Assembly: GCA_964489545.1 (NCBI GenBank)
Contig: CAZAZE010000009.1
Span: 3,035-67,034, forward strand
Length of the DNA: 64,000 nt
Origin: an uncultured Bacteroidales bacterium
GTDB taxonomy: Bacteria; Bacteroidota; Bacteroidia; Bacteroidales; JAGOPY01
Direction: 5' to 3'
A program made the translations under genes and the position numbers. Position 1 is the first letter of the stretch; the number at the start of each line of letters is the position of its first letter. The notes under the pieces were generated by a model. The model searched no databases and was not told the origin of the DNA. It worked only from the letters and a program-made list of their open reading frames with translations. This document shows, in pieces, positions 1-15,373 of this stretch.

Positions 1-3000
1 TATTAACTGTTCGATCATTATTTTTAAGTTGATCCTTGTAAGACTTTTCTAAATTAGCAATCTTATTCATTTTGGATTTCGGAATCCGGATATATTTTTT
101 AGATAAGCCCTTCAATAAGTCTGTCACTTCAAGCTTAATAACGTCTTCTTTATCAGGATTAATATCTCTTTCCGAAATCTCAGTAAAATTATCCAATTCC
201 CTTACATAATCGATGATCTTATGCTTCAATACCGGAATTTCATCATCTGTAACCGTATCGATGTTTTTACCGAGAATTGCCTGACAAAGAGAATTTATCC
301 AGACTTTCTTATTATCCAATAAAGAAACTAAGCGTTTGAAGAAGACATTGTACTTTGGTTGAATCCGGTCTGTCTTAAGTTTTGCGAATCTGTGGCTGAA
401 GGCAGCTTTATTTTTCGGAAATACCAAATCCTCCCCAAAAATTTCAGTATTGATGTAAGTTTCAATATCTTCAATTAAAACATCTAAGGCACCATTTATC
501 TCCTGTACACACTCCTTGATTGAAATGGCAAAGTCCTCAATAGCTTCCTGTTTCTCAAGCAATTCAACAGTGTTGAAACCCAATGCATTAGGGAATTCCT
601 CGAAAAAGGTAATTTCAGGGTCAACAGCATTTGCAATGGCTTGCCTTAAGTTTATGGATTTTTCGGAAAGATTCTTTGTATTTATTGCATAAGCTGAGAG
701 GGATTTGTAAAAAATCACAAAAGGTTTAAAGGTTTCAATAAAGGATGCATTTGTAAATCTTTCCTGTTCAATCTGATTTAAGATTTCCCTGTATTTATTA
801 AACAACTCAAGCCTGGCCGGTGTCAGGTCAAACTTCTTAATATAGAAATCTTGCGGAATCTTATTAATCAAATCAAGAATCTCATCATTGAGATTGGGTA
901 AGAATGTTATTTGATTGTCTGGCCTTCCTCTTTGATAAAGAGCAAAGTCATTTTTATTGGCAATTAAAAAAACGGGGAGCCAAAAATCGACGAATCCCTG
1001 CTTTAGTTTATAAGGTCTTCGTTTCAAAAAATCAGAAAATTCCAAGAGTGATTTCCTCTCATCGCGGCAACTTTCCAGAAATTCCAGACTACCTAACCAT
1101 AATCGTTGAAAGGAGGGGGAAGAAGGGGCTGATAATTGCCATTTGCCGTCCCTGAAATTCCACATACCAGAGCCCTTAATTAATGATAGAAAAATTGATT
1201 TTTCGGGAGGAAACTTCTGATCATCAAAATTCAAGTTCTCCATCGGGGTTTCTTCCAACAAACCGGATATCAGATTTCTCCGTGCAATTGAAATAGATCC
1301 CGAAATTTTAGTCTTGTTTACAAGCTCATTCCTAAATACAGGGGTAGCGGAATAAACCTCGTAACAAATAAAGGTTAATAAATTATTGAATCCCTTCTGT
1401 TTAGCCACAGGTATTAAGTTTCCCTGAAAAAACCACTTAACAGTTTGATCATCTGAATACAATCCATCCAGAACATAGTGGTTTAGCAGATTCCTGTAGT
1501 GTGATTTAATATTTTCAAGCTCTTGGAGGGCAATTATGTCATCGGCATTATCCTCAATAACGCGTTTTATCTTTTCCAGTTCAAAGATCGTATCTTCTAT
1601 CTTGCTTGTATTAGTGAATAACCCATATAAAACAGCATCTTCCACATGTGAAGAATGCTCTTTAATTGTATTCTCGGTAATCTTATCATTAAATATCAAA
1701 TTAATATAACCGTCCAATTCATCTTCCGGCACTTCCTTAACTGGCTCATTACTAATTTTAAAGCTAAACATCCTTGGCGTTCCCGTCAAAAATGAAGCTG
1801 CTTTGGCCATTATTACGGGAAAATCAAAATAGTTATTCAGGTAAAAACTTGAGTCTTTTACACGTTCAATAAGATTACCGGCCTCATTGATTGCCAGTTC
1901 AAAATCAAGATCGGTTCCATGAAAAAGCTTATATCGGTTATCATACTGCGAATGCCTGACTATTTTGAATTTAACCAATTGATTTATAATCTCTTTAGGG
2001 TTATTAATTCCTAAAGAATATTTTCCATAGAGATTAATAAATTCATCGTCAATCGTCCCTCCCTTATTTGAAAAAATGTTAAGCAAGCCAATGGTTTTAA
2101 TCAATTTTCCAGCATCCATTGCCAGCTTTGGCATTCGCACTTCTATCCTGTCTAAAGCTGATCGTATTGAATTCCATTGGTTTAAATAAGGATTGTATTT
2201 GGTAGAAATGATAGAAAAATGATAATAGTTTAAATAATCATAAACACATGCAATATTGAAGAATGGGTTACTTTCTTTATTAAATCCATATAATCCAAAT
2301 TCTTCCTCAGTTTCAATGAAGGAGAAGAGTGACCTCTCATTTTGTCCATACTCTTGTAAAGCGAGGGTTAAGATTGAAGCTGATAATAAATCTAAGGGAT
2401 AGATTCGATTACTAAAATCAAGGGAATCAAATTCCTTCAAAGGATACAATTTTGCTTCACTGATGCTAGAATGAACTTTTTCCAGCTCTACAATTTCATT
2501 TATTACAAATCCATACTCCGCAATCTTCTCAGCAGCTAAAAATAATAGCTGCTCAACCGGTTCATTAAAATTTAATTCAACAAACCTTCCTTTAACCTTA
2601 TTCCATTCATCAATCTGGTTTTGTGTAAGTTCCAAGGAGTATGCGTTGAAATTTTTATGAAGGACCGTGATAAAAATTACCTCATGATTTTTTGAATTAA
2701 CGAACTCGGCCAATTGTTGGAGAAAGTACAATTCTTTCTCCGGATTATTCTTTGCAGCAAATTCAAGGAATTTGCCAAATTCATCAATTACAATAACTAA
2801 TCCTTTGTTTTTTAAATCCTTAAGATAATTTTTTAAACCTTCCAGTACTTTTCCTGTATCATTTGATTTCGAATCAAGCCTTAACAACTCACTGAAAGCC
2901 TGGATTATTGATTTATGCTCGCCGATAAGGTTAATAAACTGAAATTCATCAACATCCCTAAAAAGCCGAGCCCGCTTAAAGATATGGTTAGTTCCATTAA

Positions 3001-3199
3001 GCGATTGTTCTAATGCAACAATAAAACTTGATTTTCCTGATCCATAAGAACCAATAACAGAAAATGACCTACTACCCTTTTGATAGTTAGAAACTATTTG
3101 ATTATAAATGTTTTGGGCATTTGGAGTAGAGATATAATTTATCTCCTCATCAAAATCCCTTATTATATTAACCGAAGGAGTATAGGTTTTAATTTTCAT
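1..3199 (-). CDS. Large P-loop NTPase; N-terminus complete, C-terminus runs off the left window edge (>=1066 codons); SspC-like ATPase partner of the DUF4007 gene
   Basis: Absent from the supplied ORF track because it has no stop inside the window. My translation of the minus strand from the ATG at 3199 (MKIKTYTPSVNIIRDFDEE...) has no in-frame stop down to position 2. Walker A GSYGSGKS (aa 50-57, nt 3029-3052), Walker B LVIVIDE (aa 134-140), then a GQNERSLFSF motif. The ATG overlaps the stop of the upstream gene by 11 nt. Confidence 0.8.
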   Translation of the reverse strand, partial: MKIKTYTPSVNIIRDFDEEINYISTPNAQNIYNQIVSNYQKGSRSFSVIGSYGSGKSSFIVALEQSLNGTNHIFKRARLFRDVDEFQFINLIGEHKSIIQAFSELLRLDSKSNDTGKVLEGLKNYLKDLKNKGLVIVIDEFGKFLEFAAKNNPEKELYFLQQLAEFVNSKNHEVIFITVLHKNFNAYSLELTQNQIDEWNKVKGRFVELNFNEPVEQLLFLAAEKIAEYGFVINEIVELEKVHSSISEAKLYPLKEFDSLDFSNRIYPLDLLSASILTLALQEYGQNERSLFSFIETEEEFGLYGFNKESNPFFNIACVYDYLNYYHFSIISTKYNPYLNQWNSIRSALDRIEVRMPKLAMDAGKLIKTIGLLNIFSNKGGTIDDEFINLYGKYSLGINNPKEIINQLVKFKIVRHSQYDNRYKLFHGTDLDFELAINEAGNLIERVKDSSFYLNNYFDFPVIMAKAASFLTGTPRMFSFKISNEPVKEVPEDELDGYINLIFNDKITENTIKEHSSHVEDAVLYGLFTNTSKIEDTIFELEKIKRVIEDNADDIIALQELENIKSHYRNLLNHYVLDGLYSDDQTVKWFFQGNLIPVAKQKGFNNLLTFICYEVYSATPVFRNELVNKTKISGSISIARRNLISGLLEETPMENLNFDDQKFPPEKSIFLSLIKGSGMWNFRDGKWQLSAPSSPSFQRLWLGSLEFLESCRDERKSLLEFSDFLKRRPYKLKQGFVDFWLPVFLIANKNDFALYQRGRPDNQITFLPNLNDEILDLINKIPQDFYIKKFDLTPARLELFNKYREILNQIEQERFTNASFIETFKPFVIFYKSLSAYAINTKNLSEKSINLRQAIANAVDPEITFFEEFPNALGFNTVELLEKQEAIEDFAISIKECVQEINGALDVLIEDIETYINTEIFGEDLVFPKNKAAFSHRFAKLKTDRIQPKYNVFFKRLVSLLDNKKVWINSLCQAILGKNIDTVTDDEIPVLKHKIIDYVRELDNFTEISERDINPDKEDVIKLEVTDLLKGLSKKYIRIPKSKMNKIANLEKSYKDQLKNNDRTVN

Positions 3200-4073
3200 A
3201 ATAATTCCTGATCAACTGTAATGTGTCGGGAGCTTTATCGATATGCAATAAATAATTACCTGCAGTTTGAGAAAAAGTTACCTGAGGATATTTCGCAGCG
3301 ATTATTTCAATCTTTTCATAAATATCATCCTTACTTAAAAGAAACACGTTTCCAATCGAATTGTTATCCGAAAAAAGTTCATTCAAAGTAATATTGGCTT
3401 CCGTTCCATATTTATTAACGACCGCCCATAACAAGATCAAAGGTGGTAAAGAAGGTCGCTTCTTTTTTGACATAAGATAATATTCTTCTTTGGTAAGTTC
3501 ATCATCTGTCTTTACAACTCTTTCAATCAATTGCAGATCAATAAAAAGCGAAGCAAATTCTTCTTCAATATTGGCTTTTGCAGAAGCCCTGTTCGATGCC
3601 AGGTAACTTCTTAAAAAAACACTTACATCCGGCTCGAATGTTTTTTCCGAGTAAGAGTTAGGATTAAGGTTACCGGTGATCCTTTTCAAAAAACCAACGA
3701 GATGATTCTTGGTGAACTCATTCCTTTCTTTCAGAAACTGGTTAAAAAGCAGATTATACATTGACGCATAATTCTGTGTAACAAGCAAATAGTGCAAAAG
3801 CCAGCTAGTTCCAATATCCTCTAAATAAGGATCATAACCGCGATCTTCAAAAATCATCTTGGCCAATTCGGTCAAGTTGTCATTTTCATCAACTAATCCA
3901 AATGCCTTAAGCCAAAACCGGATTGAGGATACCATATTCTTGCCTACACCCAATTTAACAACGGCATCCTCATCATTGAAACTATTACCTCCTAGAAGAA
4001 ATTCAACACCTTTCTTTGGCCAAAATTGCTTACAGGTAAAGGTTTCGTGACCGGAAAATTTATATGATGTCAT
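3189..4073 (-). CDS. DUF4007-family protein (SspB-like)
   Basis: N-terminus MTSYKFSGHETFTCKQFWPKKG matches my recollection of the DUF4007 signature (F-x-GHE-x-F...W-x-KK). About 294 aa from the ATG at 4073; the track start at 4115 adds 14 unlikely residues. Confidence 0.75.
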   Translation of the reverse strand: MTSYKFSGHETFTCKQFWPKKGVEFLLGGNSFNDEDAVVKLGVGKNMVSSIRFWLKAFGLVDENDNLTELAKMIFEDRGYDPYLEDIGTSWLLHYLLVTQNYASMYNLLFNQFLKERNEFTKNHLVGFLKRITGNLNPNSYSEKTFEPDVSVFLRSYLASNRASAKANIEEEFASLFIDLQLIERVVKTDDELTKEEYYLMSKKKRPSLPPLILLWAVVNKYGTEANITLNELFSDNNSIGNVFLLSKDDIYEKIEIIAAKYPQVTFSQTAGNYLLHIDKAPDTLQLIRNYYEN

Positions 4074-4257
4074 TGAAGTTCTTAATGTATGCCACAATGG
4101 ATGTAAAATTATCAATAATCAGATGCTGATGATTCACATATTGGCAAGAGTTACCATGTTTTTTTTAACGGGTTTACTATAGATTCTTCATTTCCATGTC
4201 TGCCAGCTCACTTAGGGGATTTAGGGATTAAGTATTGGATTAAAATTGTAAAGATTA

Positions 4258-5157
4258 TTACACCACCTTTAAAAACCGCTCATACCGCCAATCCAGCCGC
4301 TCCCTATCCGGATAATCTCGTTTAGAGGATGGCAAAAGGATCTTTCGATTATTCAGTTCCTGGATGCCGTGCTTTAACATTGGGCCATCGATCTCATGAA
4401 GTATATCTTCGCGAATGTGGATGGTATAGTCAGGTGAAATGCCGATGATATTCACATCATAAGCTTTATGATGGATCTTACACAGAGTTAATCCATTTGG
4501 GACGATGGGATGTCCCAAAGGTTCAGTGTCTGGAATAATATGGGCCGCATCTAAAAGCTCTGAATGATTGAGCTTGCATAAACAGCATTGAGAATGATAC
4601 GCTGCCAAGACCCTGATTCGAAACGATTGCTGATGAGCTCTTTGCTCAACCAAGGTGGTAAAATATTTTCTTCGATAGTATTCAAGGGACGCATTCATTG
4701 GATCCGTTTCAATGGAGCCTCCAAGATATTTCTGATCATCCAGGGCTACAGTAAATTCCAGGGCGGTTTGATTGTCATGCAATATATAAGCTGGGAAGTT
4801 GGCTAAATAGTTCCCGGGAGAAATACTCATAAAATATATAAGAGGAGTCTGGCTTTTCCAGGCCATCCTTAGACCTACATTGTTGGGGTGATTGGGATCA
4901 GTTCCCCGATATTTGTAAGATAGAAAGCCATCTTCTGAAATAACATCATTATAAGGTCCTTTATATACCGTCGTTATGGATATGGGCATGAGCTCGAATT
5001 GCCTGGGCTTCCAAATGCCAGCAGGCCCAATTAAAGTAATCCTTTCGCCCTGGAAATCAAACCCGGCTTCGAGAACTATTCGAGATATGACTTCCCCATT
5101 TAGTTCAACCTGTCTTTTCAGCCAGTTAAAAGCCGCGAGTCTTATTTGCTCTTCCAT
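4258..5157 (-). CDS. HNH endonuclease (HNH_2/PF13391-like C-terminus) with an N-terminal putative modified-DNA reader domain; type IV restriction-like
   Basis: C-terminal motif CCLCKLNHSELLDAAHIIPDTEPLGHPIVPNGLTLCKIHHKAYD. The N-terminal ~190 aa carry GIWKP...YKYRGTDPNHPNNVGLRMAWKSQTPLIYF. Start set to the internal Met (MEEQIRLAAF, ATG at 5157) because the longer track ORF overlaps the opposite-strand gene and crosses the composition boundary. Confidence 0.7.
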   Translation of the reverse strand: MEEQIRLAAFNWLKRQVELNGEVISRIVLEAGFDFQGERITLIGPAGIWKPRQFELMPISITTVYKGPYNDVISEDGFLSYKYRGTDPNHPNNVGLRMAWKSQTPLIYFMSISPGNYLANFPAYILHDNQTALEFTVALDDQKYLGGSIETDPMNASLEYYRRKYFTTLVEQRAHQQSFRIRVLAAYHSQCCLCKLNHSELLDAAHIIPDTEPLGHPIVPNGLTLCKIHHKAYDVNIIGISPDYTIHIREDILHEIDGPMLKHGIQELNNRKILLPSSKRDYPDRERLDWRYERFLKVV

Positions 5158-5259
5158 TTTATTATCAATTGAGCGCCGTGCCAAGTCATTTTCAAAGTTA
5201 GCAAAGAATGAATGTGGTTCGTCATATGCTTTATTGAATATACCCCTATTTTTGTGATC

Positions 5260-5826
5260 ATGACCCACGAAATCTACCAACTCCACATCACACTGCTCGG
5301 TTCCAGGCCGAAGATCTGGCGCCGGCTTCGGGTACCGGCTGATATGAAACTGGCCAAAGTGCATAAAACCCTCCAGATCGCCTTTGGATGGACGGATTCG
5401 CACCTGCATCAATTCATTAAGGATGAAAAATTCTATACGGTGCGCTACCCTGATGATGACTTCTGGGATGATCTGAGACATGTGGATTACAAGGGAGCCA
5501 AAACCCGCATCTCCGATCTGCTGCAGTCGGAAAAGGAAGCTGTCGTGTATGAATACGACTTCGGCGATGGGTGGAGGCATGAGATCGTCCTGGAAAAGAT
5601 CCTGCCGCCGAACCCGGAACAAGCCCTGCCGCTGTGCCTCGACGGACGCCGCGCCGGCCCGCCGGAAGACTGCGGCGGAGTTTTTGGCTATGCCGAACTG
5701 CTCCGCATCCTGAAAAATCCGCGGCATAAAGAGTATGAAAGCTACCTCGAGTGGGTGGGAGGAAGGTTCGACCCGGAAGCGTTCGATATCGAAAAGGTCA
5801 ACGCCCGCCTCGCGCGGATGAGGTGA
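5260..5826 (+). CDS. Plasmid pRiA4b ORF-3-like (MM3350-like, PF07929-type) protein
   Basis: IYQLHITLLGSRPKIWRRLRVPADMKLAKVHKTLQIAFGWTDSHLHQF...YEYDFGDGWRHEIVLEKI...CLDGRRAGPPEDCGG is the typical signature of this family. ATG at 5260. Confidence 0.8.
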   Translation: MTHEIYQLHITLLGSRPKIWRRLRVPADMKLAKVHKTLQIAFGWTDSHLHQFIKDEKFYTVRYPDDDFWDDLRHVDYKGAKTRISDLLQSEKEAVVYEYDFGDGWRHEIVLEKILPPNPEQALPLCLDGRRAGPPEDCGGVFGYAELLRILKNPRHKEYESYLEWVGGRFDPEAFDIEKVNARLARMR

Positions 5827-5905
5827 TGCCTCCGCTCCTCCGTATTATTTTTAACCGCAGAGACGCAGAGACCGTTTGCCGTTTGCCTTTGCCCACCTTT
5901 ATTTC

Positions 5906-5978
5906 GCCACCAAAGCACCAATGCACAAAAGAGCACCAAAGGCTTTAGTGAATTTTGGTGTTTTCGTGTTTTTGTGGC
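5906..5978. repeat. GCCAC...GTGGC composite imperfect hairpin element (copy A)
   Basis: gccaccaaagcaccaatgcacaaaagagcaccaaagg / ctttagtgaattttggtgttttcgtgtttttgtggc. The arms are built from 8-10-nt sub-repeats. Confidence 0.7.
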
Positions 5979-6160
5979 TGAAATTCGCCGCAGAGACCGA
6001 TAGCCGTGTGCCGTTTCCAATGTCATCTTGCCTGATTCTTCTGCGGTTCACCAACACAAAAAAAAGAAAACCCCGCCGAAATTTTGATCATCGGATTTTT
6101 CTAACTTGCGCTGCCCCGCGAAACCCGCGGCATTTCCTGATCCTTAACAAACCAAAAACT

Positions 6161-8044
6161 ATGAAAACATTGAGCATGATGCTGTTGGCGCTCGCCCTCG
6201 CGCCGGTACTTTTAATCACCGCCCAGGACGCGCAGTTCGTCAAACAAACCTTTTTCGCCGATAAGAATATCGTGTTCTCGGGAATGACCCGGGGCGCCGA
6301 TGGCGGTATCCTGGTCTGCACCTCCAAGGAAAGCTTCCCGGACGACTTCAGTGGCGTAGCCATCCGCCGCCTGGCGATCAACGGCGACGTGAAAGACAAA
6401 ACGGACCTGAGACTGGATATGGTGCATAACTTCGCCCTCACGCCCGATGGCGGCTTTATCGTGCTGTTCAACTACGATATGTTCAGCGACGCGAAAGGCG
6501 TCAGGCTCGACTTCAGCAACAGCAGCGAATACTATATGGCCGAACGGGATTATGAAAACATGCCGGGGGTGGTCAAAGTGTCGAAGTACGGCAGCCTGGA
6601 ATGGGTGCTGGAACTGAAACCGGCCCAGTACTTCAGCGACGGCGACGAAAGCGCCCTCTTCGTGCTGCCGGATAACCGCTGCTGGATCGTGTTCAACTAC
6701 TCCGCCGAAGATACCACCAGCGAATTCGGCGCCCAGGACGACTTTACGCGCGCCCTGATGATCGCCGCCAACGGGACGGTCCTCTTCGAGAAAGACTTCA
6801 TCGACAACGACCACGGCGTGCTGCGTGCCCCGGTGCTGCTGGAAGACGGCCGCCTGCTGCTGTTCTCCGACACCCGGCACGCCGGCGGCGGACAGGCGCT
6901 CATGACCCTCGACACGCAGGGCAACCTTGTGCAAATGGCCGCCATCCCCGGCCTGGAAGGGGTGTTCCCGAACGATATCGTCGCCGCGGGGAACTTTGGC
7001 TTCGCATTCACCCATCACGAGAACCAGGTGAATTATGTGACGCTGATCGACCGCGCCGGGAAGACCGCCTGGAAACTCCCGGCCACCGGGAACATCCACG
7101 CGATGACCGCGGACGAAAGCGCCCTCTATGCCGTCTCCACCGAAAAAAGCCTGTATGGTGTCGCCGAAGGGACGCCGGTACGCTATACCATCACCCGCTA
7201 TGACTACAGCGGCGCCGTGACCCCGGTGATGACCCTCACCGCCGACGGGCCGGTGGATCCGAAGAAATTGATCCGGACGGAATACAGCTTCGTGATGGCC
7301 GGCAACATCAAGCAGCCAGGCGCGCAAGGGGTGGCTGTCCTGGTCACCGTGCCGGAGACCAACGCCGACATCTTCCGCAATATGAACGCCTACGACTACC
7401 GGGAATATGCCAAAGCGGTCGAAAACAACGACCTGGAACGGATCCGGGCATTGGCCGCCTTCGGGATCGACCCGGACTTCAAAGCGGGCAGTGCCGGCGA
7501 CCGCGAAACGGAAGCCGACAACCCGCTGCTCGTGGCCTTCAAGCTGGGTAAGTACGACCTCGCAGAAGAGCTGCTGAAAAGCGGCGCCGACCCCGACGCA
7601 GTCGACAAAGTTCCGGTGCGCTACTTCATCTACGAACGGGCGGAGATCTACAACCTCCCGGTCACCCCGCTGATGTACATCGCCCTGACGCCCGGCTTTT
7701 ACGACGCACCCAAATATGTAGAGCTGCTGAACAAGTACAACGCCGATTTCAAGCGCATCACGCGCGACGGAACGGCATTCCGTCAGGCGTTCCAGATGCA
7801 GAACACGGAATTCATGGACCTCTACAGCCAGTACGTTACCTTCAGCACCGACGACCTGAATAACTTATTCGCCCCGGCGTACGAGTTCAACCTCCCTCAA
7901 TCCCTGAAATGGATCCTGGACCGCGGCGCCAACGCCAACAGCACCGATTTCATGGGCGACAGCTACCTGGAAAAGGGCATGCAGTCGGACAGCAAAGAGA
8001 TCAAGGCGGTGCTGAAAGAGTGGCAGAAAACGCACAAACATTAG
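6161..8044 (+). CDS. Secreted protein with C-terminal ankyrin-like repeats
   Basis: Signal peptide MKTLSMMLLALALAPVLLITAQD at the ATG at 6161. C-terminal repeats such as NPLLVAFKLGKYDLAEELLKSGADPDAV. The upstream part of the track ORF (from 5876) is translated repeat DNA. Confidence 0.7.
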   Translation: MKTLSMMLLALALAPVLLITAQDAQFVKQTFFADKNIVFSGMTRGADGGILVCTSKESFPDDFSGVAIRRLAINGDVKDKTDLRLDMVHNFALTPDGGFIVLFNYDMFSDAKGVRLDFSNSSEYYMAERDYENMPGVVKVSKYGSLEWVLELKPAQYFSDGDESALFVLPDNRCWIVFNYSAEDTTSEFGAQDDFTRALMIAANGTVLFEKDFIDNDHGVLRAPVLLEDGRLLLFSDTRHAGGGQALMTLDTQGNLVQMAAIPGLEGVFPNDIVAAGNFGFAFTHHENQVNYVTLIDRAGKTAWKLPATGNIHAMTADESALYAVSTEKSLYGVAEGTPVRYTITRYDYSGAVTPVMTLTADGPVDPKKLIRTEYSFVMAGNIKQPGAQGVAVLVTVPETNADIFRNMNAYDYREYAKAVENNDLERIRALAAFGIDPDFKAGSAGDRETEADNPLLVAFKLGKYDLAEELLKSGADPDAVDKVPVRYFIYERAEIYNLPVTPLMYIALTPGFYDAPKYVELLNKYNADFKRITRDGTAFRQAFQMQNTEFMDLYSQYVTFSTDDLNNLFAPAYEFNLPQSLKWILDRGANANSTDFMGDSYLEKGMQSDSKEIKAVLKEWQKTHKH

Positions 8045-8051
8045 AAATTTT

Positions 8052-8075
8052 GAGGTTTAAGGTTTAAGGTTTAAG
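8052..8075. repeat. Heptamer tandem array AGGTTTA x 3
   Basis: gaggtttaaggtttaaggtttaag. The same unit recurs at 31531-31555 and, degenerate, at 26630-26650. Confidence 0.7.
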
Positions 8076-8086
8076 TTGGGGCGGCA

Positions 8087-8153
8087 CCAGTTTCCAGTTC
8101 GCAGTTCCCAGTTCCCAGTTTGCCCGAACCTGGAACTCTGGAACCCTGGAACC
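8087..8153. repeat. Hairpin made of opposed heptamer arrays (CCCAGTT x ~4 versus CTGGAAC x ~3)
   Basis: ccagtttccagttcgcagttcccagttcccagttt gcccg aacctggaactctggaaccctggaacc, directly downstream of the stop at 8044. Confidence 0.65.
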
Positions 8154-8160
8154 AACAATA

Positions 8161-8233
8161 GCCACTAAAGCACAAAAGCACAAAAGGGCACTAAAGGCTT
8201 TGGTGCATTTTAGTGTTTTCGTGTTTTTGTGGC
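8161..8233. repeat. GCCAC...GTGGC composite hairpin element (copy B), direct-repeat partner of copy A
   Basis: gccactaaagcacaaaagcacaaaagggcactaaagg / ctttggtgcattttagtgttttcgtgtttttgtggc. It shares an identical 20-mer, ttttcgtgtttttgtggctg, with copy A. Confidence 0.75.
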
Positions 8234-8287
8234 TGGAATTCACCGCCGAGGCGCAGAGTCGCAGAGCCTGTTAGCCGTTTCCATTTT

Positions 8288-8463
8288 CTTACAGTCCTAC
8301 AGTCCTGCTGTCTTACAGTCTTACAGTCCTACAGTCTTACAGTCCTAAAGTCTTACAGTCTTACCGTCCTACAGTCTTACAGTCTTACCGTCTTACCGTC
8401 TTACTGTCTTACCGTCTTACCGTCCCCGCTCCCCCGCTTCCCCGCTCCCCCGCTTCCCCGCAT
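8288..8463. repeat. Octamer tandem array, about 22 units (CTTACAGT-type grading into CCCCGCTY-type)
   Basis: Read directly. The period of 8 nt is maintained over about 176 nt upstream of the NuoE-like gene. Confidence 0.85.
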
Positions 8464-8549
8464 CTTTAGACTCCCTCCAAATTAGCGCCGGGCCGCTGGG
8501 AAACGGGAAGAAATTTTATTTTTACCACGCCAAAAAACACGGCAATCCT

Positions 8550-9077
8550 ATGCGCATTGAACGATTCATCCCCGCGGTGGGAGCTGAGGCGCAGGAAGAA
8601 ATCGACCTTTCCCTTCTCGACCGCCTCATCGAAAAATACAAGCACAAAAAAGGCAACCTCATCCCGCTGCTGCAGGGCACGCAGAATATCTACGGATTCC
8701 TGCCGCGCGTGGCTTTTGAGAAGATCGCCGCCGAGACGGGCCTCAGCCTGTCGGACATGTATGGCGTGGCCACCTTCTACGCCCAGTTCCGCCTGAAACC
8801 GGTGGGCAAACACATCATCAAAGTATGCCACGGTACGGCCTGCCACGTGCAGAACGCCAACACCATCACCGACTCGCTCCAGGAGTCGCTGAAGATCAAG
8901 GACGGCGAAACGACCGAAGACAGCCTGTTCACGCTCGAGTCGGTGGCCTGCCTGGGCTGCTGCTCCCTGGCGCCGGTGATGATGATCGGCGAGCAGACCT
9001 ACGGCAAACTCACCGGCAGCGAAGCGGTCCGGATCGTGAAGAATATCCGGATGGAAGAAGTGAAACAGAATAACTAA
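8550..9077 (+). CDS. NuoE/HoxE/HydC-like thioredoxin-fold [2Fe-2S] subunit
   Basis: KVCHGTACHV...CLGCCSLAPVMMI cysteine pattern and overall NuoE-like sequence. Confidence 0.85.
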   Translation: MRIERFIPAVGAEAQEEIDLSLLDRLIEKYKHKKGNLIPLLQGTQNIYGFLPRVAFEKIAAETGLSLSDMYGVATFYAQFRLKPVGKHIIKVCHGTACHVQNANTITDSLQESLKIKDGETTEDSLFTLESVACLGCCSLAPVMMIGEQTYGKLTGSEAVRIVKNIRMEEVKQNN

Positions 9078-9119
9078 TGTTTACAACCTCTTCCATTGAA
9101 TGTGGAGATATGAAAAGTT

Positions 9120-9229
9120 TTAACCGCAAAGGCGCACAAAGGACAACACGAAGGCACACAAAGGTCGCCATCGCGCTTATCAACCCTTAGTGCGCCTTAG
9201 TGAAGTACTTCGTGCGCCTTAGTGGTTAA
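9120..9229. repeat. TTAACCGC...GTGGTTAA composite hairpin element between the NuoE-like and NuoF-like genes
   Basis: Left arm of CACAAAGG-type sub-repeats, right arm of CCTTAGTG-type sub-repeats. Confidence 0.7.
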
Positions 9230-9263
9230 ATAAAGATGATAAATATCTCCGGATTTTTGGAGG

Positions 9264-11060
9264 ATGGAAATAAAATATGCAATGCAAAAAACAAAAGTAA
9301 TCGTCGGGCTGGGCAGCTGCGGGGTCGCGGCGGGCGCCGGCAAGGTGTACGATAAAATCAGGGCCATCCGGGAGGTGGAGCACCTCGATTTCGAGCTGAA
9401 GAAGACCTCCTGCGTCGGCATGTGCTACCGCGAGCCGCTGGTGGAGATCATCGACGAAACCGGCTCCTACCTCTACGGCGAGATCACCGAAGACCGGGCG
9501 GTGGAGCTCATCGAGAAGCACGTCAATTTGCACGACCCGGTGCGCGACTACCTCATCCAGAGCGACCTGTTCGAGACGCCGGACCGCACCTTCCTCGAGG
9601 CGCAGGTGAAGATCGTGCTGCGCAACTGCGGCTACATCGACCCGGAGCACATCGAAGAGTACGAGGCGCGCAAAGGCTACGAAGCCATACGCAGGATCGC
9701 CTCGGAGCGGATCGCCCGCACTGAGGTCATCCAGACGGTACTGAATTCCGGCATCCGCGGACGCGGCGGCGGCGGCTTCCCCACCGGCCTGAAGTGGAAG
9801 TTCGCCAACGACAACAAGTCGGACGAAAAGTACATCATCTGCAACGCCGACGAAGGCGACCCGGGCGCGTTCATGGACCGCTCGGTGCTGGAAGGCGACC
9901 CGCACTCGGTCATCGAAGGGATGATCATCGCCGCCTACGCCATCGAGGCCACCGGCGGGGTGATCTACTGCCGCGCCGAGTACCCGCTGGCCATCAAGCG
10001 CCTCAACATCGCGCTCGACCAGGCCCGGGCCAAGGGATACCTGGGGCAAGCGATCCTCGGCATTCCGGACTTCAACTTCGACATCTACATCAAGGAAGGC
10101 GCCGGCGCTTTCGTCTGCGGCGAGGAAACGGCCCTCATCGCCTCGGTGGAAGGCGAGCGCGGCATGCCCCGCAAACGCCCGCCCTTCCCGGCCGCCAGCG
10201 GCCTGTGGCGCAAGCCCACCAACATCAACAACGTGGAAACCTTCGCCAACATCCCCTGGATCATCCTCAACGGCGCGGCCGAATACGCCAAATACGGCAC
10301 CGAGAAGAGCAAGGGCACCAAGGTGTTCGCCCTGGCCGGCAAGATCAAGCGCTCGGGCCTGGTGGAGGTGCCCATGGGCATCACCATCCGCGACATCATC
10401 TTCAAGCTCGGCGGCGGCATCCAGAAAGACCGCAAGTTCAAGGCCGTGCAGATGGGCGGCCCCTCGGGCGGCTGCATCCCGGAATACATGGCCGACACCA
10501 TCGTCGACTACGACAGCGTGAACGCCACCGGCGCCATCATGGGCTCCGGCGGGATGGTCGTCATGGACGAAGACACCTGCATGGTCGACGTGGCCAAGTT
10601 CTTCCTCGACTTCACCCAGAAGGAGAGCTGCGGCAAATGCACCTTCTGCCGCGTGGGCACCAAGCGCATGCTGGAGATCCTGCAGCGCATCACCGAAGGC
10701 AGGGGCGAGGACGGCGACATCGAGCGCCTCGAGGAGCTGGCCTACCAGATCAAGGACAACTCCCTGTGCGGACTGGGCCAGACGGCGCCCAACCCGGTGC
10801 TGACCACCATCCGCTACTTCCGCCACGAGTACGAGGCGCACATCCGCGACAAGAAATGCCCGGCCAAGGCATGCAAGCAACTGCTCACCTACGAGGTCAT
10901 CGCGGAAAACTGCACCGGCTGCACCGTCTGCGCCAAGAACTGCCCGGTCGACGCCATCACCGGCAACCGCAAGGAGGTGCATTTCATCCTGCAGGACGTC
11001 TGCATCAAGTGCGGCATGTGTTACACGAAATGTAAATTCGAAGCGATAAAACTATCATGA
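9264..11060 (+). CDS. NuoF/HydB-like NADH-binding FMN/[4Fe-4S] subunit with an N-terminal 2Fe-2S-like domain and a C-terminal 2x[4Fe-4S] ferredoxin domain
   Basis: GRGGGGFPTGLKWKF (FMN), ICNADEGDPGAFMDR (NADH), ESCGKCTFCRVG, and C-terminal CTGCTVCAKNCP / CIKCGMCYTKC. Confidence 0.9.
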   Translation: MEIKYAMQKTKVIVGLGSCGVAAGAGKVYDKIRAIREVEHLDFELKKTSCVGMCYREPLVEIIDETGSYLYGEITEDRAVELIEKHVNLHDPVRDYLIQSDLFETPDRTFLEAQVKIVLRNCGYIDPEHIEEYEARKGYEAIRRIASERIARTEVIQTVLNSGIRGRGGGGFPTGLKWKFANDNKSDEKYIICNADEGDPGAFMDRSVLEGDPHSVIEGMIIAAYAIEATGGVIYCRAEYPLAIKRLNIALDQARAKGYLGQAILGIPDFNFDIYIKEGAGAFVCGEETALIASVEGERGMPRKRPPFPAASGLWRKPTNINNVETFANIPWIILNGAAEYAKYGTEKSKGTKVFALAGKIKRSGLVEVPMGITIRDIIFKLGGGIQKDRKFKAVQMGGPSGGCIPEYMADTIVDYDSVNATGAIMGSGGMVVMDEDTCMVDVAKFFLDFTQKESCGKCTFCRVGTKRMLEILQRITEGRGEDGDIERLEELAYQIKDNSLCGLGQTAPNPVLTTIRYFRHEYEAHIRDKKCPAKACKQLLTYEVIAENCTGCTVCAKNCPVDAITGNRKEVHFILQDVCIKCGMCYTKCKFEAIKLS

Positions 11061-11078
11061 CCCTTTTCTTTATATTAT

Positions 11079-11173
11079 TTAACCACAAAGGCGCACAAAG
11101 GATTTCACAAAGGCGCACAAAGGAGGATCTTCGCAGTACCACCTTCGTGTTCCTTCGTGTTCTTTCGTGGTAA
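11079..11173. repeat. TTAACCAC...GTGGTAA composite hairpin element between the NuoF-like and fusion genes
   Basis: Four CACAAAGG units face three CCTTCGTG/CTTTCGTG units. Confidence 0.7.
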
Positions 11174-11208
11174 AAAAGAATTAAAGCAAAGCACCAAAAA
11201 GGATAAAT

Positions 11209-14200
11209 ATGAGCGAAAAAGTAAATATAATCTTAAACGGCAGCATCGTCGGCGGCATCAAAGGAGAAACCATCCTGGAACTGGCCAGGCGCCATGGGAT
11301 CGAGATCCCGACCCTGTGCAACGATCCGCGGCTGGAGCCCTATACCTCCTGCTACGTCTGCGTGGTCGAGGTCGAAGGCATGCGCGGGCTGCAGCCTTCC
11401 TGCTCCACGAAGATCTCCGAGGGGATGCGCATCGAGACCGACAACGGCAAGATCCGCCAGGCGCGCAAGACCGCGCTCGACCTGCTGGTGAGCAACCATT
11501 ACGCCGATTGTATCGGGCCCTGCAAGCAGACCTGCCCGGCAGGCGTGGATGTGCAGGGCTACATCAGCCTGATCGAGAAAGGGCAGTACCACGAGGCCGT
11601 CGGGCTCATCAAGGAGACCAACCCGCTGCCGGCCATCTGCGGCCGCGTGTGCGTGCGCCCCTGCGAGGTGGCCTGCCGCCGCAACCTGCTCGACGAAGGC
11701 GCCCCCGTGGGCATCGACTACCTGAAGCGCTTCGCTTCCGACATCGACCTCGAATCGCCCGGCAAATGGAAACCCGTCATCAAGCCTTCCACCGGCAAAA
11801 AGGTCGCCGTGATCGGCGCCGGGCCCGCCGGGCTGTCGTGCGGCTTCTTCCTCCAGAAGGAAGGACACCAGGTCGATATCTTCGAGGCCAGCCCGAAAGC
11901 GGGCGGATGGCTGCGCTATGGCATCCCCGAATACCGGCTTCCGAATGACTTACTTCAGAAAGAAGTTGATAATATAACCGAGATGGGTGTGCGGATTTTC
12001 TTCAATCAGAAGTTCGGGAAAGACATCAGTTATAAGGATATTCAACAGAATTACGACGCCATGATCCTGGGCATCGGGTCGCAGAAAGGCACCCTGATCG
12101 GTTGCGACGGAGAGGATGCGGAAGGCGTTTTTTCCGGAATTGATTTCCTTAAGAACATGGAAATCACCGGAGAACGTTTTGATTTCCGCGGAAAAAAGGT
12201 CGCCGTGATCGGCGGCGGGAACACCGCCATGGACTGCTGCAGGACTTCCATCCGCTGCGGCGCCGACAAAGTGTATGTCATTTACCGCCGTACCGAAAAA
12301 GAAATGCCGGCCAATCCGATCGAGATACATGAGTCGAAACTGGAAGGAGTAGATTACATGTTTCTGACCCTTCCGGTCAAGGTAGTGAAGAGTGAACGGG
12401 GAGCGGTGAAGAGTATTATTTGCCAGAAGATGGCTCTGGGCGAACCGGATGCATCCGGGCGGAGAAGGCCCGTTCCGGTGGAAGGATCGGAATTTGAGGT
12501 GGAAGTCGATTTCATCCTGGCCGCCATCGGGCAGAAGACCGTGCCGGATTTCCTGGAGGATATCAAAGCCAGTGCCGACAACGGGGAGGTGAAAGCCAAC
12601 CGCTGGGGCGACCTCGAAGCCGATCCGGATACGTTGCAGACCGGCATCCCGTCGGTGTTCGCCGCCGGCGACGGCGTGACCGGACCGGCCACGCTCATAC
12701 AGGCCATCGCCCAGGGAAGGAAAGCTGCTCATAGCTGCGACCTCTACCTGAAAGGATTGCCGGTGGTGCCGGAACAGGCCGAATTCTTCAGCAAAAAAGA
12801 CAATTTCAAACCCCAGGTCATGGCCGACTACAAAGGCTATTTCCCGGAGCAGAAGCGCGAGGAGATGCCGACCCTCGACCCGGAGAAGCGGATGAACTTC
12901 GACGAGGTGGAGCTGGGCTACGCCTCTGAGGCCGTGGCCTTCCACGAGACGCAGCGCTGCCTGGAATGCGGCTGCACGGCCCTGTTCACCTGCGACCTGA
13001 AGAAATACTGCACCGAATACGAAGCCGACCAGAAGAAGCTGGCCGGGGAATTTAAAGAGTACCACATCGATTTCCGCCATCCCTACATCGAGATCGACAA
13101 CAACAAATGCATCCTGTGCAGCCGTTGCGTCCGCATCTGCCGCGAGGTCGTGGGCGCCAACGCCCTGGGCCTGGTGAACCGAGGGTTCGAGACCTACGTC
13201 GCGCCCAGCATGGGCAACGCCCTGCAGGACACCTATTGCGAGTCGTGCGGGCTGTGCATCACCACCTGTCCTACGGGCGCCATCACCGAGAACGTGCCGT
13301 TCAAACCCGGCCCCGTCCGGCTGGAGCCGGCAGAGACCATCTGCAACTACTGCTCGGTGGGCTGCGCCATCTCCCTCAACCACAAAAACGGCTTCGTGAT
13401 GCAGGTCACCGGCGCAGAAGGCCATGTGAACCCCGACGGCAACCTTTGCCGCTATGCCAAGTTCGGATACCATTACCTGAACGACCGGCGGCGGATCACC
13501 GCGCCCATGATGAAGGTCAACGGGAAGTTCGAAACGGTTTCCTGGGAGAAGGCATATGATGTGATCGCGCAGAAAATATCGGCCGTAAGTCCCGATGAGA
13601 ACGCCTTCTTTGCCGGCGCACGGCTCACGAACGAGGAGCAGTACCTGGTGCAAAAGCTGGCCAGGGCCGGGGCGAAGACCAACAACGTGACCAGCTTCCA
13701 TTACATGGCCCGGGGCGCCGGATACCGCGGAGACGCGATTGCCGCCACGCCCTTCAGCCAGGTCAAAGACGCCGGGAAGATCTACCTGGTCGGGTCGGAG
13801 ATCAACAGCGACAATGCGGTTTTAGGATTTAGGATTTACAATGTACAATTTGCAAAGGGGATACCGGTTTCGCTGGTAACGGACAAAACGGACAGTTCCA
13901 TGGCGCACAAGGTCGATGAGTTGATGGTGATCAAATCGTACTACCATTTCATCAAGGCCGTGAACCACTACCTGGCCTCTGCCGGGCTGCACAACGGGCT
14001 GTTCATCAAGGACAATTGCACCGGGTATGAGGAATACAAGGCCGCGCTGCTGCAGGAAAGTTTCGCGGAGCTGGTCAAACTTGCCGGTGTTTCGGAGCTG
14101 GACGTGATCGATTTCGCGAAGCGCTACAACGAAGAGCAGAACGCCATCATCGTGTTTTCGGAGAAAGAGCTTTCGTCGAACGCCTGCACCGAGCTGTTCA

Positions 14201-14931
14201 ACCTGGCTTTGCTCACCGGCAAGCTGGGCAAGACCGCCAGCGGGCTGATCGCCCTGAAGGAGAAGAACAACAGCCAGGGGCTGCACGATATGGGCATCTG
14301 CCGGAATTATGGCCCCGGAGGGGTAGCGATTGAGCATGAAGATTTACGGTCGAAGATCTCAGATCTATGGAAGATGGATTCTTTCCCTGACATGGGCAGG
14401 CCGGCCATCATTGAAGGATTGGAAGCGGGATCGCTGAAAAACCTGTTCATCTTCGGCGAGGACCCGGCCGGATGCGCCGCCGACAAGGCCCGGGTTGAGC
14501 AATGGTTTGACAAAGCCGGGTTCATCGTGGTGCAGGATTATTTCATGACTGCCACCGCCGCCCTGGCCGACTTGATCCTGCCGGCCTCATTCCCGGTGGA
14601 AACCGGAGGCAGCTTCACCAATACCCAGAAAGTGATCCAGGAGTTCGGGGCGGTATTGAAGCCTAAGGTGGAAAGGGACAACCTGCGGCAACTCGCCGAT
14701 TTGCTTGGGGCGAAGGGCGTAGGGCAAAGTGGAGATCGCAGCGACGTGATGTCGGAGCTCATCACCCTGCTGCCGGAGGCAAAGGAAAGGACCTATTCGT
14801 TTGCCCCGACGGAAGGCGACAACCCGAACCGGATGTTCCGCCACGGCTGCGACGACATCGTCCGCCGTTTTGACGAAGAATTTGCACAGGCGTTTAACCA
14901 TGTAAAAGCAGGACATTATGAAAGAGTTTAA
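11209..14931 (+). CDS. Fusion oxidoreductase: 2Fe-2S ferredoxin + GltD-like NAD(P)H FAD oxidoreductase + NuoG/FdhA-like 4Fe-4S and molybdopterin-oxidoreductase-like domain
   Basis: N-terminus CNDPRLEPYTSCYVCVVEV. GltD signatures CPAGVDVQGYI, NPLPAICGRVCVRPCEVAC, KKVAVIGAGPAGLSCG and VAVIGGGNTAMDCCRT. Then CILCSRCVRIC, CESCGLCITTCP and ICNYCSVGCAISL (MopB Fe4S4). Confidence 0.85.
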   Translation: MSEKVNIILNGSIVGGIKGETILELARRHGIEIPTLCNDPRLEPYTSCYVCVVEVEGMRGLQPSCSTKISEGMRIETDNGKIRQARKTALDLLVSNHYADCIGPCKQTCPAGVDVQGYISLIEKGQYHEAVGLIKETNPLPAICGRVCVRPCEVACRRNLLDEGAPVGIDYLKRFASDIDLESPGKWKPVIKPSTGKKVAVIGAGPAGLSCGFFLQKEGHQVDIFEASPKAGGWLRYGIPEYRLPNDLLQKEVDNITEMGVRIFFNQKFGKDISYKDIQQNYDAMILGIGSQKGTLIGCDGEDAEGVFSGIDFLKNMEITGERFDFRGKKVAVIGGGNTAMDCCRTSIRCGADKVYVIYRRTEKEMPANPIEIHESKLEGVDYMFLTLPVKVVKSERGAVKSIICQKMALGEPDASGRRRPVPVEGSEFEVEVDFILAAIGQKTVPDFLEDIKASADNGEVKANRWGDLEADPDTLQTGIPSVFAAGDGVTGPATLIQAIAQGRKAAHSCDLYLKGLPVVPEQAEFFSKKDNFKPQVMADYKGYFPEQKREEMPTLDPEKRMNFDEVELGYASEAVAFHETQRCLECGCTALFTCDLKKYCTEYEADQKKLAGEFKEYHIDFRHPYIEIDNNKCILCSRCVRICREVVGANALGLVNRGFETYVAPSMGNALQDTYCESCGLCITTCPTGAITENVPFKPGPVRLEPAETICNYCSVGCAISLNHKNGFVMQVTGAEGHVNPDGNLCRYAKFGYHYLNDRRRITAPMMKVNGKFETVSWEKAYDVIAQKISAVSPDENAFFAGARLTNEEQYLVQKLARAGAKTNNVTSFHYMARGAGYRGDAIAATPFSQVKDAGKIYLVGSEINSDNAVLGFRIYNVQFAKGIPVSLVTDKTDSSMAHKVDELMVIKSYYHFIKAVNHYLASAGLHNGLFIKDNCTGYEEYKAALLQESFAELVKLAGVSELDVIDFAKRYNEEQNAIIVFSEKELSSNACTELFNLALLTGKLGKTASGLIALKEKNNSQGLHDMGICRNYGPGGVAIEHEDLRSKISDLWKMDSFPDMGRPAIIEGLEAGSLKNLFIFGEDPAGCAADKARVEQWFDKAGFIVVQDYFMTATAALADLILPASFPVETGGSFTNTQKVIQEFGAVLKPKVERDNLRQLADLLGAKGVGQSGDRSDVMSELITLLPEAKERTYSFAPTEGDNPNRMFRHGCDDIVRRFDEEFAQAFNHVKAGHYERV

Positions 14932-15373
14932 GGATACCGATTCCATTCTGCTGTTCGCGATCGAGCAGGAACAGAAAGCGGTCGATTTTTATACCGATCT
15001 GGCCCGTGAGGCCCATTCGGAGGAGATGAAGCGCGTCTTCATCGAGTTCGCCGGCGAGGAGATCAAACACAAGCAGCGGCTGACGAAGATCCGGGAAGAG
15101 GGCGTGTTCACCATGCCCATGGAGCGGGTCGCCGATCTGAAGATCAGCGATTACGTGGTCGAGGTGAAGGCCGGCGGCAAGCTCAGCTACGAAGAGGCGC
15201 TGGTGCTGGCCATGAAGCGGGAGAAGGCCGCTTTCCGGTTGTACAGCAGCCTGGCGGAACGCGCGCCGAGCCCGGAGGTGAGAGATATCTTCCTGGCCCT
15301 GGCCCTGGAAGAATCGCGGCATAAGCTGCGGTTCGAGGTGGAGTACGACGAGTACGTGCTGCGGGAGAACTGA
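14918..15373 (+). CDS. Rubrerythrin-like ferritin-fold diiron protein (no rubredoxin domain)
   Basis: LLFAIEQEQKAVDFY...FAGEEIKHKQ...LALALEESRHK E-x-x-H type motifs. The start overlaps the upstream stop by 14 nt. Confidence 0.7.
   Translation: MKEFKDTDSILLFAIEQEQKAVDFYTDLAREAHSEEMKRVFIEFAGEEIKHKQRLTKIREEGVFTMPMERVADLKISDYVVEVKAGGKLSYEEALVLAMKREKAAFRLYSSLAERAPSPEVRDIFLALALEESRHKLRFEVEYDEYVLREN

Follow-up and report, generated by a model that had tools for sequence, protein, structure and literature searches.

A stop-free frame at the edge of a DNA window from an uncultured Bacteroidales bacterium is very probably sspC, the ATPase gene of an SspBCD DNA phosphorothioation module

The sspB-sspC-sspD system puts sulfur into the DNA backbone, and the published Ssp modification motif in Vibrio is 5'-CpsCA-3'. 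Ssp systems, comprising SspABCD with SspE or SspFGH as possible additions, carry out single-strand phosphorothioation in Vibrio cyclitrophicus FF75, E. coli 3234/A and V. anguillarum FF-93 (Xiong et al. 2020 via PMC10853773; PMC8092258). Within this machinery, SspC is a P-loop ATPase that is essential for phosphorothioate (PT) synthesis and "essentially" homologous to BrxC (PMC12914056); a second source places it in the ORC/Cdc6 clade and offers a scanning model in which SspB takes part (PMC10853773). Bacteroidales have sspBCD, CpsC has been detected by LC-MS in gut members that carry it, and carriers often encode the cysteine desulfurase elsewhere (PMC12914056).

An unlisted sspC gene and its operon

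The locus lies at the left end of the window, a 64,000-nt stretch of a contig from an uncultured Bacteroidales bacterium. The features of this region are as follows.

1..3199, minus strand: sspC, first 1066 of its 1084 codons, truncated at the window edge (open frame; PADLOC SspC; contig L001)
904..1155, plus strand: spurious 83-aa ORF, wholly inside the conserved sspC reading frame, antisense
3189..4073, minus strand: sspB (DUF4007), 294 aa if started at the ATG at 4073, or 308 aa with a TTG start at 4115 (Pfam DUF4007; PADLOC SspB)
3189..3199, minus strand: sspB/sspC overlap ATGAAAATTAA, 11 nt, with the sspC start codon within the last sspB codons
4258..5157, minus strand: HNH endonuclease gene, 299 aa, upstream of sspB (Pfam HNH_2; PADLOC HNH PDLC04132, E 9e-24)

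Translation of the window bore out the first-pass annotation, which had noted a long minus-strand frame absent from the ORF list: from the ATG at 3199 to position 1 there are 1066 codons and zero stops. With a stop probability of 0.0775 per codon, taken from the base composition of the strand, such a run would arise by chance with a probability of about 1e-37. The remaining five frames of 1-3199 contain 47-149 stops, with a longest open stretch of 87 codons, and the only listed ORF of at least 80 aa in the first 3.2 kb is the 83-aa antisense frame, rightly called spurious before. ORFs that run off the ends of the source go unreported, and the absence of sspC is therefore an edge artefact of the listing and no biological oddity. 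The complete gene was recovered from an independent contig (L001) that is 100% identical to window positions 24-6000; there it encodes 1084 aa and is followed by sspD, so the window lacks only the last 18 codons.

The protein matches the PADLOC SspC profile PDLC02776 from end to end (E=0, 1222 bits, aa 13-1053 on profile 1-1036/1039), and 11 further PADLOC SspC sub-family profiles match with E values of 1e-163 to 4e-35. It belongs to a Bacteroidota sub-family, for which PDLC02776 is the best profile, and is at most 94% identical to previously clustered sequences. Searches returned 4559 homologues at E<=1e-10, the full-length top matches being 1070-1096 aa long, and at least 525 genomic relatives, of which the best 80 are almost all from Bacteroidota. 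The nearest relatives of this SspC are in Bacteroidales MAGs. Neither SspC nor SspB hit any NCBIfam model, and their names are therefore taken from PADLOC profiles and operon context; as NCBIfam has no SspC/SspB family, the homologues are named "hypothetical protein" or "ATP-binding protein" in public records. A sequence search of SspC against PDB chains found no match. On these grounds the ORF is, with high confidence, sspC. Its product would be the large ATPase subunit in a DNA phosphorothioation module of the SspBCD type, and is an ordinary member of an already known family.

SspC, BrxC/PglY and KAP NTPases had been proposed at the outset as comparators, and the choice was a sensible one. 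A KAP-family or STAND-type NTPase acting in signalling or abortive infection, unrelated to DNA modification, is suggested by weak Pfam matches to KAP_NTPase (24.4 bits, aa 27-115 only), nSTAND1, AAA_16 and AAA_22. These matches are limited to the generic P-loop region and most fall under curated cut-offs; for KAP, only positions 4-88 of 293 in PF07693 align, and this is the generic stretch around Walker A. The whole protein, by contrast, is explained by its match to SspC over the full length and by the setting of its gene in the operon, leaving the KAP/STAND reading with a negligible probability. A DUF499 ATPase (with a C-terminal RRM-like domain) was likewise rejected, with no Pfam DUF499 match at E<=0.01.

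The neighbouring genes complete the expected trio. The sspB product matches Pfam DUF4007 over its full profile (E 6.9e-74, 1-288/288) and PADLOC SspB PDLC02760 (E 1.5e-96), and its 294-aa form is the one called on two independent contigs. On L001, just outside the window, sspD encodes 368 aa (PADLOC SspD 1.3e-88, Pfam PAPS_reduct) and overlaps sspC by 14 nt. Among 85 related ssp loci, SspD is found in 85 and SspB in 82, the trio being present in 82, and the window SspC likewise lies between sspB and sspD.

The earlier placement of the sspC ATG inside the last codons of the DUF4007 gene agrees with the junction, ...AGG AAT TAT TAT GAA AAT TAA, in which the same 11 nt close sspB (stop at 3189-3191) and open sspC (ATG at 3197-3199), the ATG being embedded in the codons for the conserved SspB C-terminal Tyr-Tyr. 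An overlap between the two genes is seen at 80 of 82 related loci and measures exactly 11 nt at 51; sspC overlaps sspD in 75 of 82. Because the stop and start codons overlap, sspB, sspC and sspD are probably carried on one transcript in linked amounts, and the conserved overlap makes translational coupling of sspB and sspC plausible. The window has AGGA 6 nt upstream of the overlapped sspC ATG. As a general rule, coupling driven by a Shine-Dalgarno sequence was rejected, since only 5 of 48 junctions have an SD-like purine run ahead of the overlapped start codon.

This gene order also bears on whether the ORF could be BrxC/PglY of a BREX system (type 4, phosphorothioation-based) instead of SspC. 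BrxC and SspC are treated as homologues (PMC12914056, PMC12839542), the best solved-structure match is Acinetobacter BrxC, and the PADLOC BrxC-PglY profile aligns to aa 114-910 (E 6e-54). Yet 10 of the 12 SspC profiles outscore BrxC-PglY, the best by >1000 bits; DUF4007 and PAPS reductase are encoded by separate genes flanking the ATPase and not as the BrxP fusion that marks type 4; neither BrxL nor PglZ, the other gene universal to BREX, was found among the genes scanned in L001 and window positions 1-8044 (HNH, SspB, SspD, GHKL, PRiA4_ORF3 and Ank); and, at 1084 aa, the protein is shorter than BrxC (1200-1300 aa, PMC12839542). A BREX assignment is accordingly improbable, and the gene is referred to below as sspC.

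ATPase core and C-terminal region of SspC

The following elements were located on the SspC protein.

3029..3052, minus strand: Walker A / P-loop GSYGSGKS, aa 50-57; G50, G53, G55, K56 and S57 invariant in 61 homologues; follows strand 45-50 (AF2)
2771..2800, minus strand: Walker B LVIVIDEFGK, aa 134-143; D139, E140, G142 and K143 invariant (61 homologues); on strand 132-139 (AF2)
2585..2587, minus strand: R205, candidate arginine finger, motif KVKGR; K201, V202, G204 and R205 invariant; just before model strand 207-210
2318..2347, minus strand: GQNERSLFSF, aa 285-294, in the helical region after the ATPase core; Q286, N287, R289, S290, L291, F292 and F294 invariant; between helices 271-284 and 291-296
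1..1882, minus strand: SspC C-terminal region, aa 440-1066 (AF2 model; BrxC sequence homology up to aa 910)

The N-terminal P-loop NTPase recognised earlier from GSYGSGKS, LVIVIDEFGK and GQNERSLFSF was thus found with all three motifs in place, and in the 61-sequence alignment invariant and near-invariant columns run along the whole of SspC. In a Foldseek search of the AF2 model (pLDDT 84.6), the best PDB matches of the N-terminal half were BrxC (9zll and 9zdx, E 4e-7), followed by ORC/Cdc6 proteins (E ~2e-6, ~11-16% identity). These data support the assignment of SspC as an AAA+ ATPase of the ORC/Cdc6 clade with intact Walker A and Walker B motifs, which would be expected to have ATPase activity. 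By analogy with the description of BrxC/BrxD (PMC12839542), R205 is a candidate arginine finger, and R289 in GQNERSLFSF is a candidate sensor-2 arginine with a presumed function.

The protein had been described as mostly unannotatable and as the place where novel function would sit. This view did not hold: the SspC profile matches from end to end, the operon is the canonical sspB-sspC-sspD, and the C-terminal region is, by sequence comparison, homologous to the published DNA-binding scaffold of BrxC, a protein with a known domain layout (PMC12839542). As to its fold, we claim nothing beyond what is published for BrxC. The observation that this region carries no recognisable catalytic motif was correct, with none found in its ~630 aa. 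Modelled separately, the C-terminal 627 aa gave a pLDDT of 87.0 and a pTM of 0.72, and Foldseek against the PDB, a comparison that the first-pass annotation had proposed for the C-terminal two thirds, returned nothing significant (best E 0.27) and no housekeeping or catalytic domain; these ~630 aa thus have a confidently predicted fold and no solved relative. In our reading of the model, by comparison with PMC12839542, the region appears to combine an alpha+beta domain, which contains two long helices, with two to three units resembling winged helices and a bundle of helices; a beta-hairpin and a helix form its end.

We propose a working model for the module. The N-terminal third of SspC would bind and hydrolyse ATP, while its C-terminal part, with the winged-helix units, alpha+beta domain and helical arm, would hold DNA and partner proteins. 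SspC together with SspB, a DNA-binding and nicking protein, would find the target sites. SspD, with ATP and persulfide sulfur from a cysteine desulfurase (SspA or IscS, encoded elsewhere), would then exchange, on one strand, a non-bridging oxygen of the phosphate for sulfur. The resulting phosphorothioate mark may identify DNA as self to a putative partner, the product of a linked restriction or effector gene. Any modification motif assigned to the window module is likewise presumptive.

A low-GC island and the gene after sspD

The ssp cassette is a low-GC mobile island (~34-37% GC against 54% in the rest of the window): positions 1-5200 have a GC content of 35.7%, compared with 54.2% for the remainder, and across hosts of 35-58% GC the cassette itself stays at 32-37%. 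Scans of the whole window for tRNA genes and Rfam families returned nothing, and no tRNA gene marks an integration site at the island boundary.

The HNH gene has full-length homologues of 299-302 aa at 55-95% identity and, by sequence, no relative in the PDB. Considered as a conserved Ssp partner or a PT-dependent nuclease, it was rejected as a conserved partner: none of the 85 related ssp loci carries it, and its match to the NCBIfam model PT-DNA_restrict is confined to the HNH part, with 64 bits where the cut-off is 180. It probably belongs to the same low-GC island as a restriction-type gene in its own right, and not as a conserved Ssp component.

No cysteine desulfurase gene (sspA) adjoins the ssp operon in L001; SspA follows sspD in only 4 of 73 ssp loci, so its absence is common. 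The canonical restriction partners SspE and SspFGH were not detected in the flanks either, and the module could therefore be an orphan modification system. One might go further and suppose that sspBCD is decaying or already inactive, a leftover orphan cassette that arrived with a recent island and has ceased to modify DNA. The low GC content of the island in a higher-GC genome, the lack of adjacent sspA, SspE or SspFGH, and decay in relatives, where sspB is split by an IS element in one locus (L005) and sspC is apparently truncated in another (L042), would fit such a history. Against it, sspB, sspC and sspD are full length, with family-typical sizes (294, 1084 and 368 aa) and no frameshift that would indicate a pseudogene, every invariant residue of the family that was checked in the alignment is retained, and two further samples independently yielded an assembly of the identical sequence. 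We therefore consider loss of function very unlikely, and favour an intact sspBCD module.

In the contig of the window, the slot after sspD, outside the window itself, encodes an uncharacterised protein that runs into the contig end and so has at least 636 aa. Its full-length relatives have ~730-780 aa and two GHKL domains, an N-terminal HATPase_c_3 and a C-terminal HATPase_c. The slot is variable in the Bacteroidota clade, with GmrSD_N-type, double-GHKL and GIY-YIG genes, and in 19 of 73 loci the gene immediately after sspD encodes a double-GHKL protein. Identity with SspE, SspF, SspG or SspH was rejected, as PADLOC gave no such matches, only weak ones of "REase_II" and MzaB to the ATPase domain; the protein had no match to DndFGH, and a search of the literature for links between sspBCD and GHKL, MORC or HATPase gave nothing relevant. 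We tentatively suggest that the double-GHKL protein could act in restriction or as an effector, as a partner of a new kind that depends on phosphorothioate, although we rate this as less likely than not. About 84% of sspBCD modules appear orphan, and such a partner, if real, would help to explain this state. More broadly, the survey of genes after sspD points to candidate partners for many "orphan" sspBCD modules.

The left end of the window is thus a horizontally acquired defence island with DNA phosphorothioation, an assignment that aids annotation of the contig, and the presence of sspBCD helps to predict DNA backbone modification in an uncultured bacterium. With the unlisted ORF explained as an edge artefact and its product a standard SspC, the sspC gene alone raises no new question; the sole open lead is the uncharacterised double-GHKL ATPase downstream of sspD.

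Comparison with known systems

In the phosphorothioation machinery of DndABCDE, DndD has an analogous ATPase role. It is an SMC/ABC-type ATPase not homologous to SspC (PMC10853773), and the PADLOC DndD profile gave no match to the window protein. The ORC1/Cdc6 initiators share with SspC the fold of the ATPase core, the following helical region and the next winged helix. At ~11-16% identity, they differ from SspC in having no C-terminal extension of ~630 aa and in an unrelated biological role.

BrxC/PglY (PDB 9zdx, 9zll) shares with SspC the ORC/Cdc6-clade AAA+ N-terminal half (Foldseek E 4e-7) and sequence homology to aa 910. Beyond this half, our reading of the SspC model suggests that the two share one order of units: first a wHTH, next an alpha+beta domain that contains two long helices, then wHTH units, and last an arm of helices at the C terminus. 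SspC differs in being shorter (1084 against 1200-1300 aa), in the absence of PglZ, BrxL and PglX partners, and in pairing with separate SspB and SspD proteins and not with a BrxP fusion or a methyltransferase. In one published swap, Bacteroides ovatus sspC failed to complement a B. salyersiae brxC mutant (PMC12914056), so functional equivalence across the BrxC/SspC family is not simple.

The described Ssp systems are closest to the window locus, with which they share the end-to-end profile match, the sspB-sspC-sspD order with overlaps, the P-loop motifs and a size of ~1040-1100 aa. The window locus differs from them in having no adjacent sspA, sspE or sspFGH, and in carrying a double-GHKL ATPase after sspD.

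The open frame at the left edge and its assignment to sspC

Translation of the minus strand from the ATG at 3199 to base 1 of the window gave 1066 codons and zero stops, as the first-pass annotation had reported. The coding strand is rich in A (0.34) and T (0.32), giving a per-codon stop probability of 0.0775 and a chance of ~1e-37 for an open run of this length. In these 3.2 kb each of the remaining frames carries 47-149 stops, with open stretches of at most 87 codons. The sole ORF listed for this region, that annotation had further noted, is an 83-aa plus-strand frame; it lies at 904-1155, antisense within the large ORF. The latter is missing because the lister omits ORFs running off a sequence end, and its absence is an edge artefact, not biology. 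The full-length gene was recovered from contig L001, whose reverse complement is 100% identical to window 24-6000 and which extends 3 kb beyond the left edge. There the protein is 1084 aa (L001:2779-6033), so that only 18 codons are absent from the window; an 88.7-kb NCBI contig, presumably the one from which the window comes, encodes exactly this 1084-aa protein as well.

The large ORF matches the PADLOC SspC profile PDLC02776 over its full length (E=0, 1222 bits, aa 13-1053, profile positions 1-1036 of 1039), and eleven further SspC sub-family profiles also match (E 1e-163 to 4e-35). The BrxC-PglY profile, a comparator suggested at first pass together with SspC and KAP NTPases, aligns over aa 114-910 (6e-54). 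Pfam gave weak generic P-loop matches only (KAP_NTPase, AAA_22, AAA_16, nSTAND1, BrxC_BrxD) and an NCBIfam scan matched no family, which is why the protein looks unannotatable without tools and why public copies are labelled 'hypothetical protein' or 'ATP-binding protein'. The upstream gene encodes 294 aa from the ATG at 4073 and occurs on two contigs that were assembled independently; it is sspB (Pfam DUF4007, E 6.9e-74 over the full profile; PADLOC SspB, E 1.5e-96). On L001, sspC is followed with a 14-nt overlap by sspD, encoding 368 aa (PADLOC SspD, 1.3e-88; Pfam PAPS_reduct). Such an arrangement of three genes is that of the canonical sspBCD modification operon (PMC12914056; PMC8092258), and the large ORF is sspC, an already known gene. 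The observation of a large unlisted ORF is confirmed; its portrayal as mostly unannotatable and a likely place of novel function finds no support.

In the published account, SspC works together with SspB, which binds and nicks DNA, and consumes ATP in locating or holding target sites. A cysteine desulfurase mobilises the sulfur that SspD, a PAPS-reductase-type ATP pyrophosphatase, then places in the backbone of one strand (PMC12914056; PMC10853773; PMC8092258). The CpsC dinucleotide is present in gut Bacteroidales isolates that have sspBCD (PMC12914056).

Structure, conservation and gene overlap

The features of the large ORF, numbered from the ATG at 3199, are listed below; all three motifs quoted at first pass were found in its translation.

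Features of SspC (motifs from the translation; C-terminal elements from our reading of the model)
aa 50-57: Walker-type motif GSYGSGKS
aa 134-143: motif LVIVIDEFGK
aa 285-294: motif GQNERSLFSF
aa ~450-615: alpha+beta domain with two long helices
aa ~634-790: two or three winged-helix-like units
aa ~794-1004: helical bundle
aa ~1018-1061: terminal beta-hairpin and helix

The 1066 aa were modelled with AlphaFold2 (mean pLDDT 84.6), and the model bears out the proposed N-terminal P-loop NTPase, with five core strands (45-50, 85-92, 132-139, 174-181, 207-210), a helical insert between strands two and three, and then a helical region and a winged-helix-like unit (385-425). The best Foldseek matches in the PDB are Acinetobacter BrxC structures 9zll and 9zdx (E 4e-7 to 1e-5, ~550-590 aligned columns); ORC/Cdc6 proteins of archaea and eukaryotes come next. 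The invariant R205 directly precedes strand 207-210 and probably occupies the arginine-finger position of BrxC-type ATPases, and R289 of GQNERSLFSF, in the helical region, is a candidate sensor-2 residue. A ring-translocase picture has been put forward (PMC10853773); since 9zdx describes BrxC as an ATP-bound dimer, that picture is not settled.

Modelled separately, aa 440-1066 (pLDDT 87.0, pTM 0.72) gave nothing significant in the Foldseek search proposed at first pass, run here against the PDB (best E 0.27), consistent with the lack of a recognisable catalytic motif noted there. This region is homologous to the described non-catalytic, putatively DNA-binding scaffold, and is not unique to the present locus. 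Homologues at E<=1e-10 number 4559 in a protein search, and the best 120 of them are nearly all 1070-1096 aa long and 43-94% identical. When one genome per species was scanned, at least 525 genomic relatives appeared; Bacteroidota contribute almost all of the best 80 (Bacteroidales, Chitinophagaceae, Cytophagales, Flavobacteriales and others). In a 61-sequence alignment, invariant or near-invariant columns run along the whole protein, including the C-terminal two thirds (for example W701, P729, K731, L732, K733, G735, W740, P861, E862, P870 and W967); the gene is thus intact, and its family is under purifying selection along its full length.

SspD accompanies SspC in all 85 related loci and SspB in 82. 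Two relatives show signs of decay: an IS3-family transposase pair interrupts sspB at L005:5799-8032, and in L042 sspC, at 894 aa, is apparently cut short and separated from sspD by 533 nt.

The sspB/sspC junction reads AGG AAT TAT TAT GAA AAT TAA. As described at first pass, the two genes share 11 nt: the sspC ATG (3197-3199) lies within the last codons of the DUF4007 gene, which stops at 3189-3191. Of 82 loci, 80 have an sspB/sspC overlap, and in 51 it is exactly 11 nt long, making this architecture a family trait; sspC overlaps sspD in 75 of 82. The ATG falls within the codons of a Tyr-Tyr pair that is conserved close to the C-terminus of SspB. AGGA lies 6 nt upstream of it here; a Shine-Dalgarno-like purine run precedes it at only 5 of 48 junctions. 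Translational coupling of sspB and sspC is a reasonable reading of the conserved overlap.

The low-GC island and its neighbours

GC content is 35.7% in window 1-5200 versus 54.2% in the rest (5800-64000), with a sharp boundary. Across hosts of about 35-58% GC, sspBCD stays at 32-37% GC; it is apparently a mobile cassette of low GC, its constant composition pointing to recent horizontal transfer. Scans of the whole window for tRNA genes and Rfam families gave no match, and the island boundary therefore has no tRNA integration site.

Genes beyond sspB in the window
4258-5157, minus: HNH_2 endonuclease, 299 aa, upstream of sspB
5212-5826, plus: PRiA4_ORF3-like gene (plasmid pRiA4b ORF-3 family, E 1e-65), at the island boundary, divergent from the HNH gene
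8550-14931, plus (within): NuoE-like 2Fe-2S protein, 175 aa
8550-14931, plus (within): NuoF-like FMN/Fe-S protein, 598 aa
8550-14931, plus (within): 1240-aa fusion of 2Fe-2S, GltD-like pyridine-nucleotide oxidoreductase and molybdopterin oxidoreductase
14918-15373: rubrerythrin-like gene, after the redox cluster

The HNH_2 family is very widespread and highly conserved (7514 matches; 55-95% identity among the 120 listed), and in none of the 85 related loci is it linked to ssp. Automatic calls lengthen this gene to 489 aa (to 5727), antisense over the PRiA4_ORF3 gene. Its homologues are 296-305 aa long, which supports a start at the ATG at 5157. A long plus-strand ORF at 5876-8044 (722 aa from a TTG, start uncertain) has weak C-terminal ankyrin-repeat matches, and several long antisense ORFs in this GC-rich stretch appear spurious. 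The redox gene cluster lies in the host-GC part.

The variable slot downstream of sspD

We surveyed the gene immediately after sspD in 73 related loci (L004-L087), and this slot is variable.

Gene directly after sspD (loci of 73)
GmrSD_N/DUF262 type (PADLOC NsnA-like): 21
Double-GHKL ATPase, ~730-780 aa: 19
GIY-YIG protein: 8
SspA/DndA-type cysteine desulfurase: 4
Weak SspE match: 2
PbeA gene: 1

On L001, beyond the window's left edge, a double-GHKL ATPase gene likewise lies directly downstream of sspD (7077-8984, cut at 636 aa). The double-GHKL proteins combine an N-terminal HATPase_c_3 with a C-terminal HATPase_c domain; further examples are L007:12351-14678, L047:10322-12532 and L062:5621-7798. 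They match none of the SspE, SspFGH or DndFGH profiles, and a literature search for a link between ssp and GHKL ATPases found no paper. This gene is the sole lead with some novelty, and lies outside both the window and the original finding. The mix of genes after sspD fits the published figure of 84% of sspBCD modules without SspE or SspFGH (PMC8092258).
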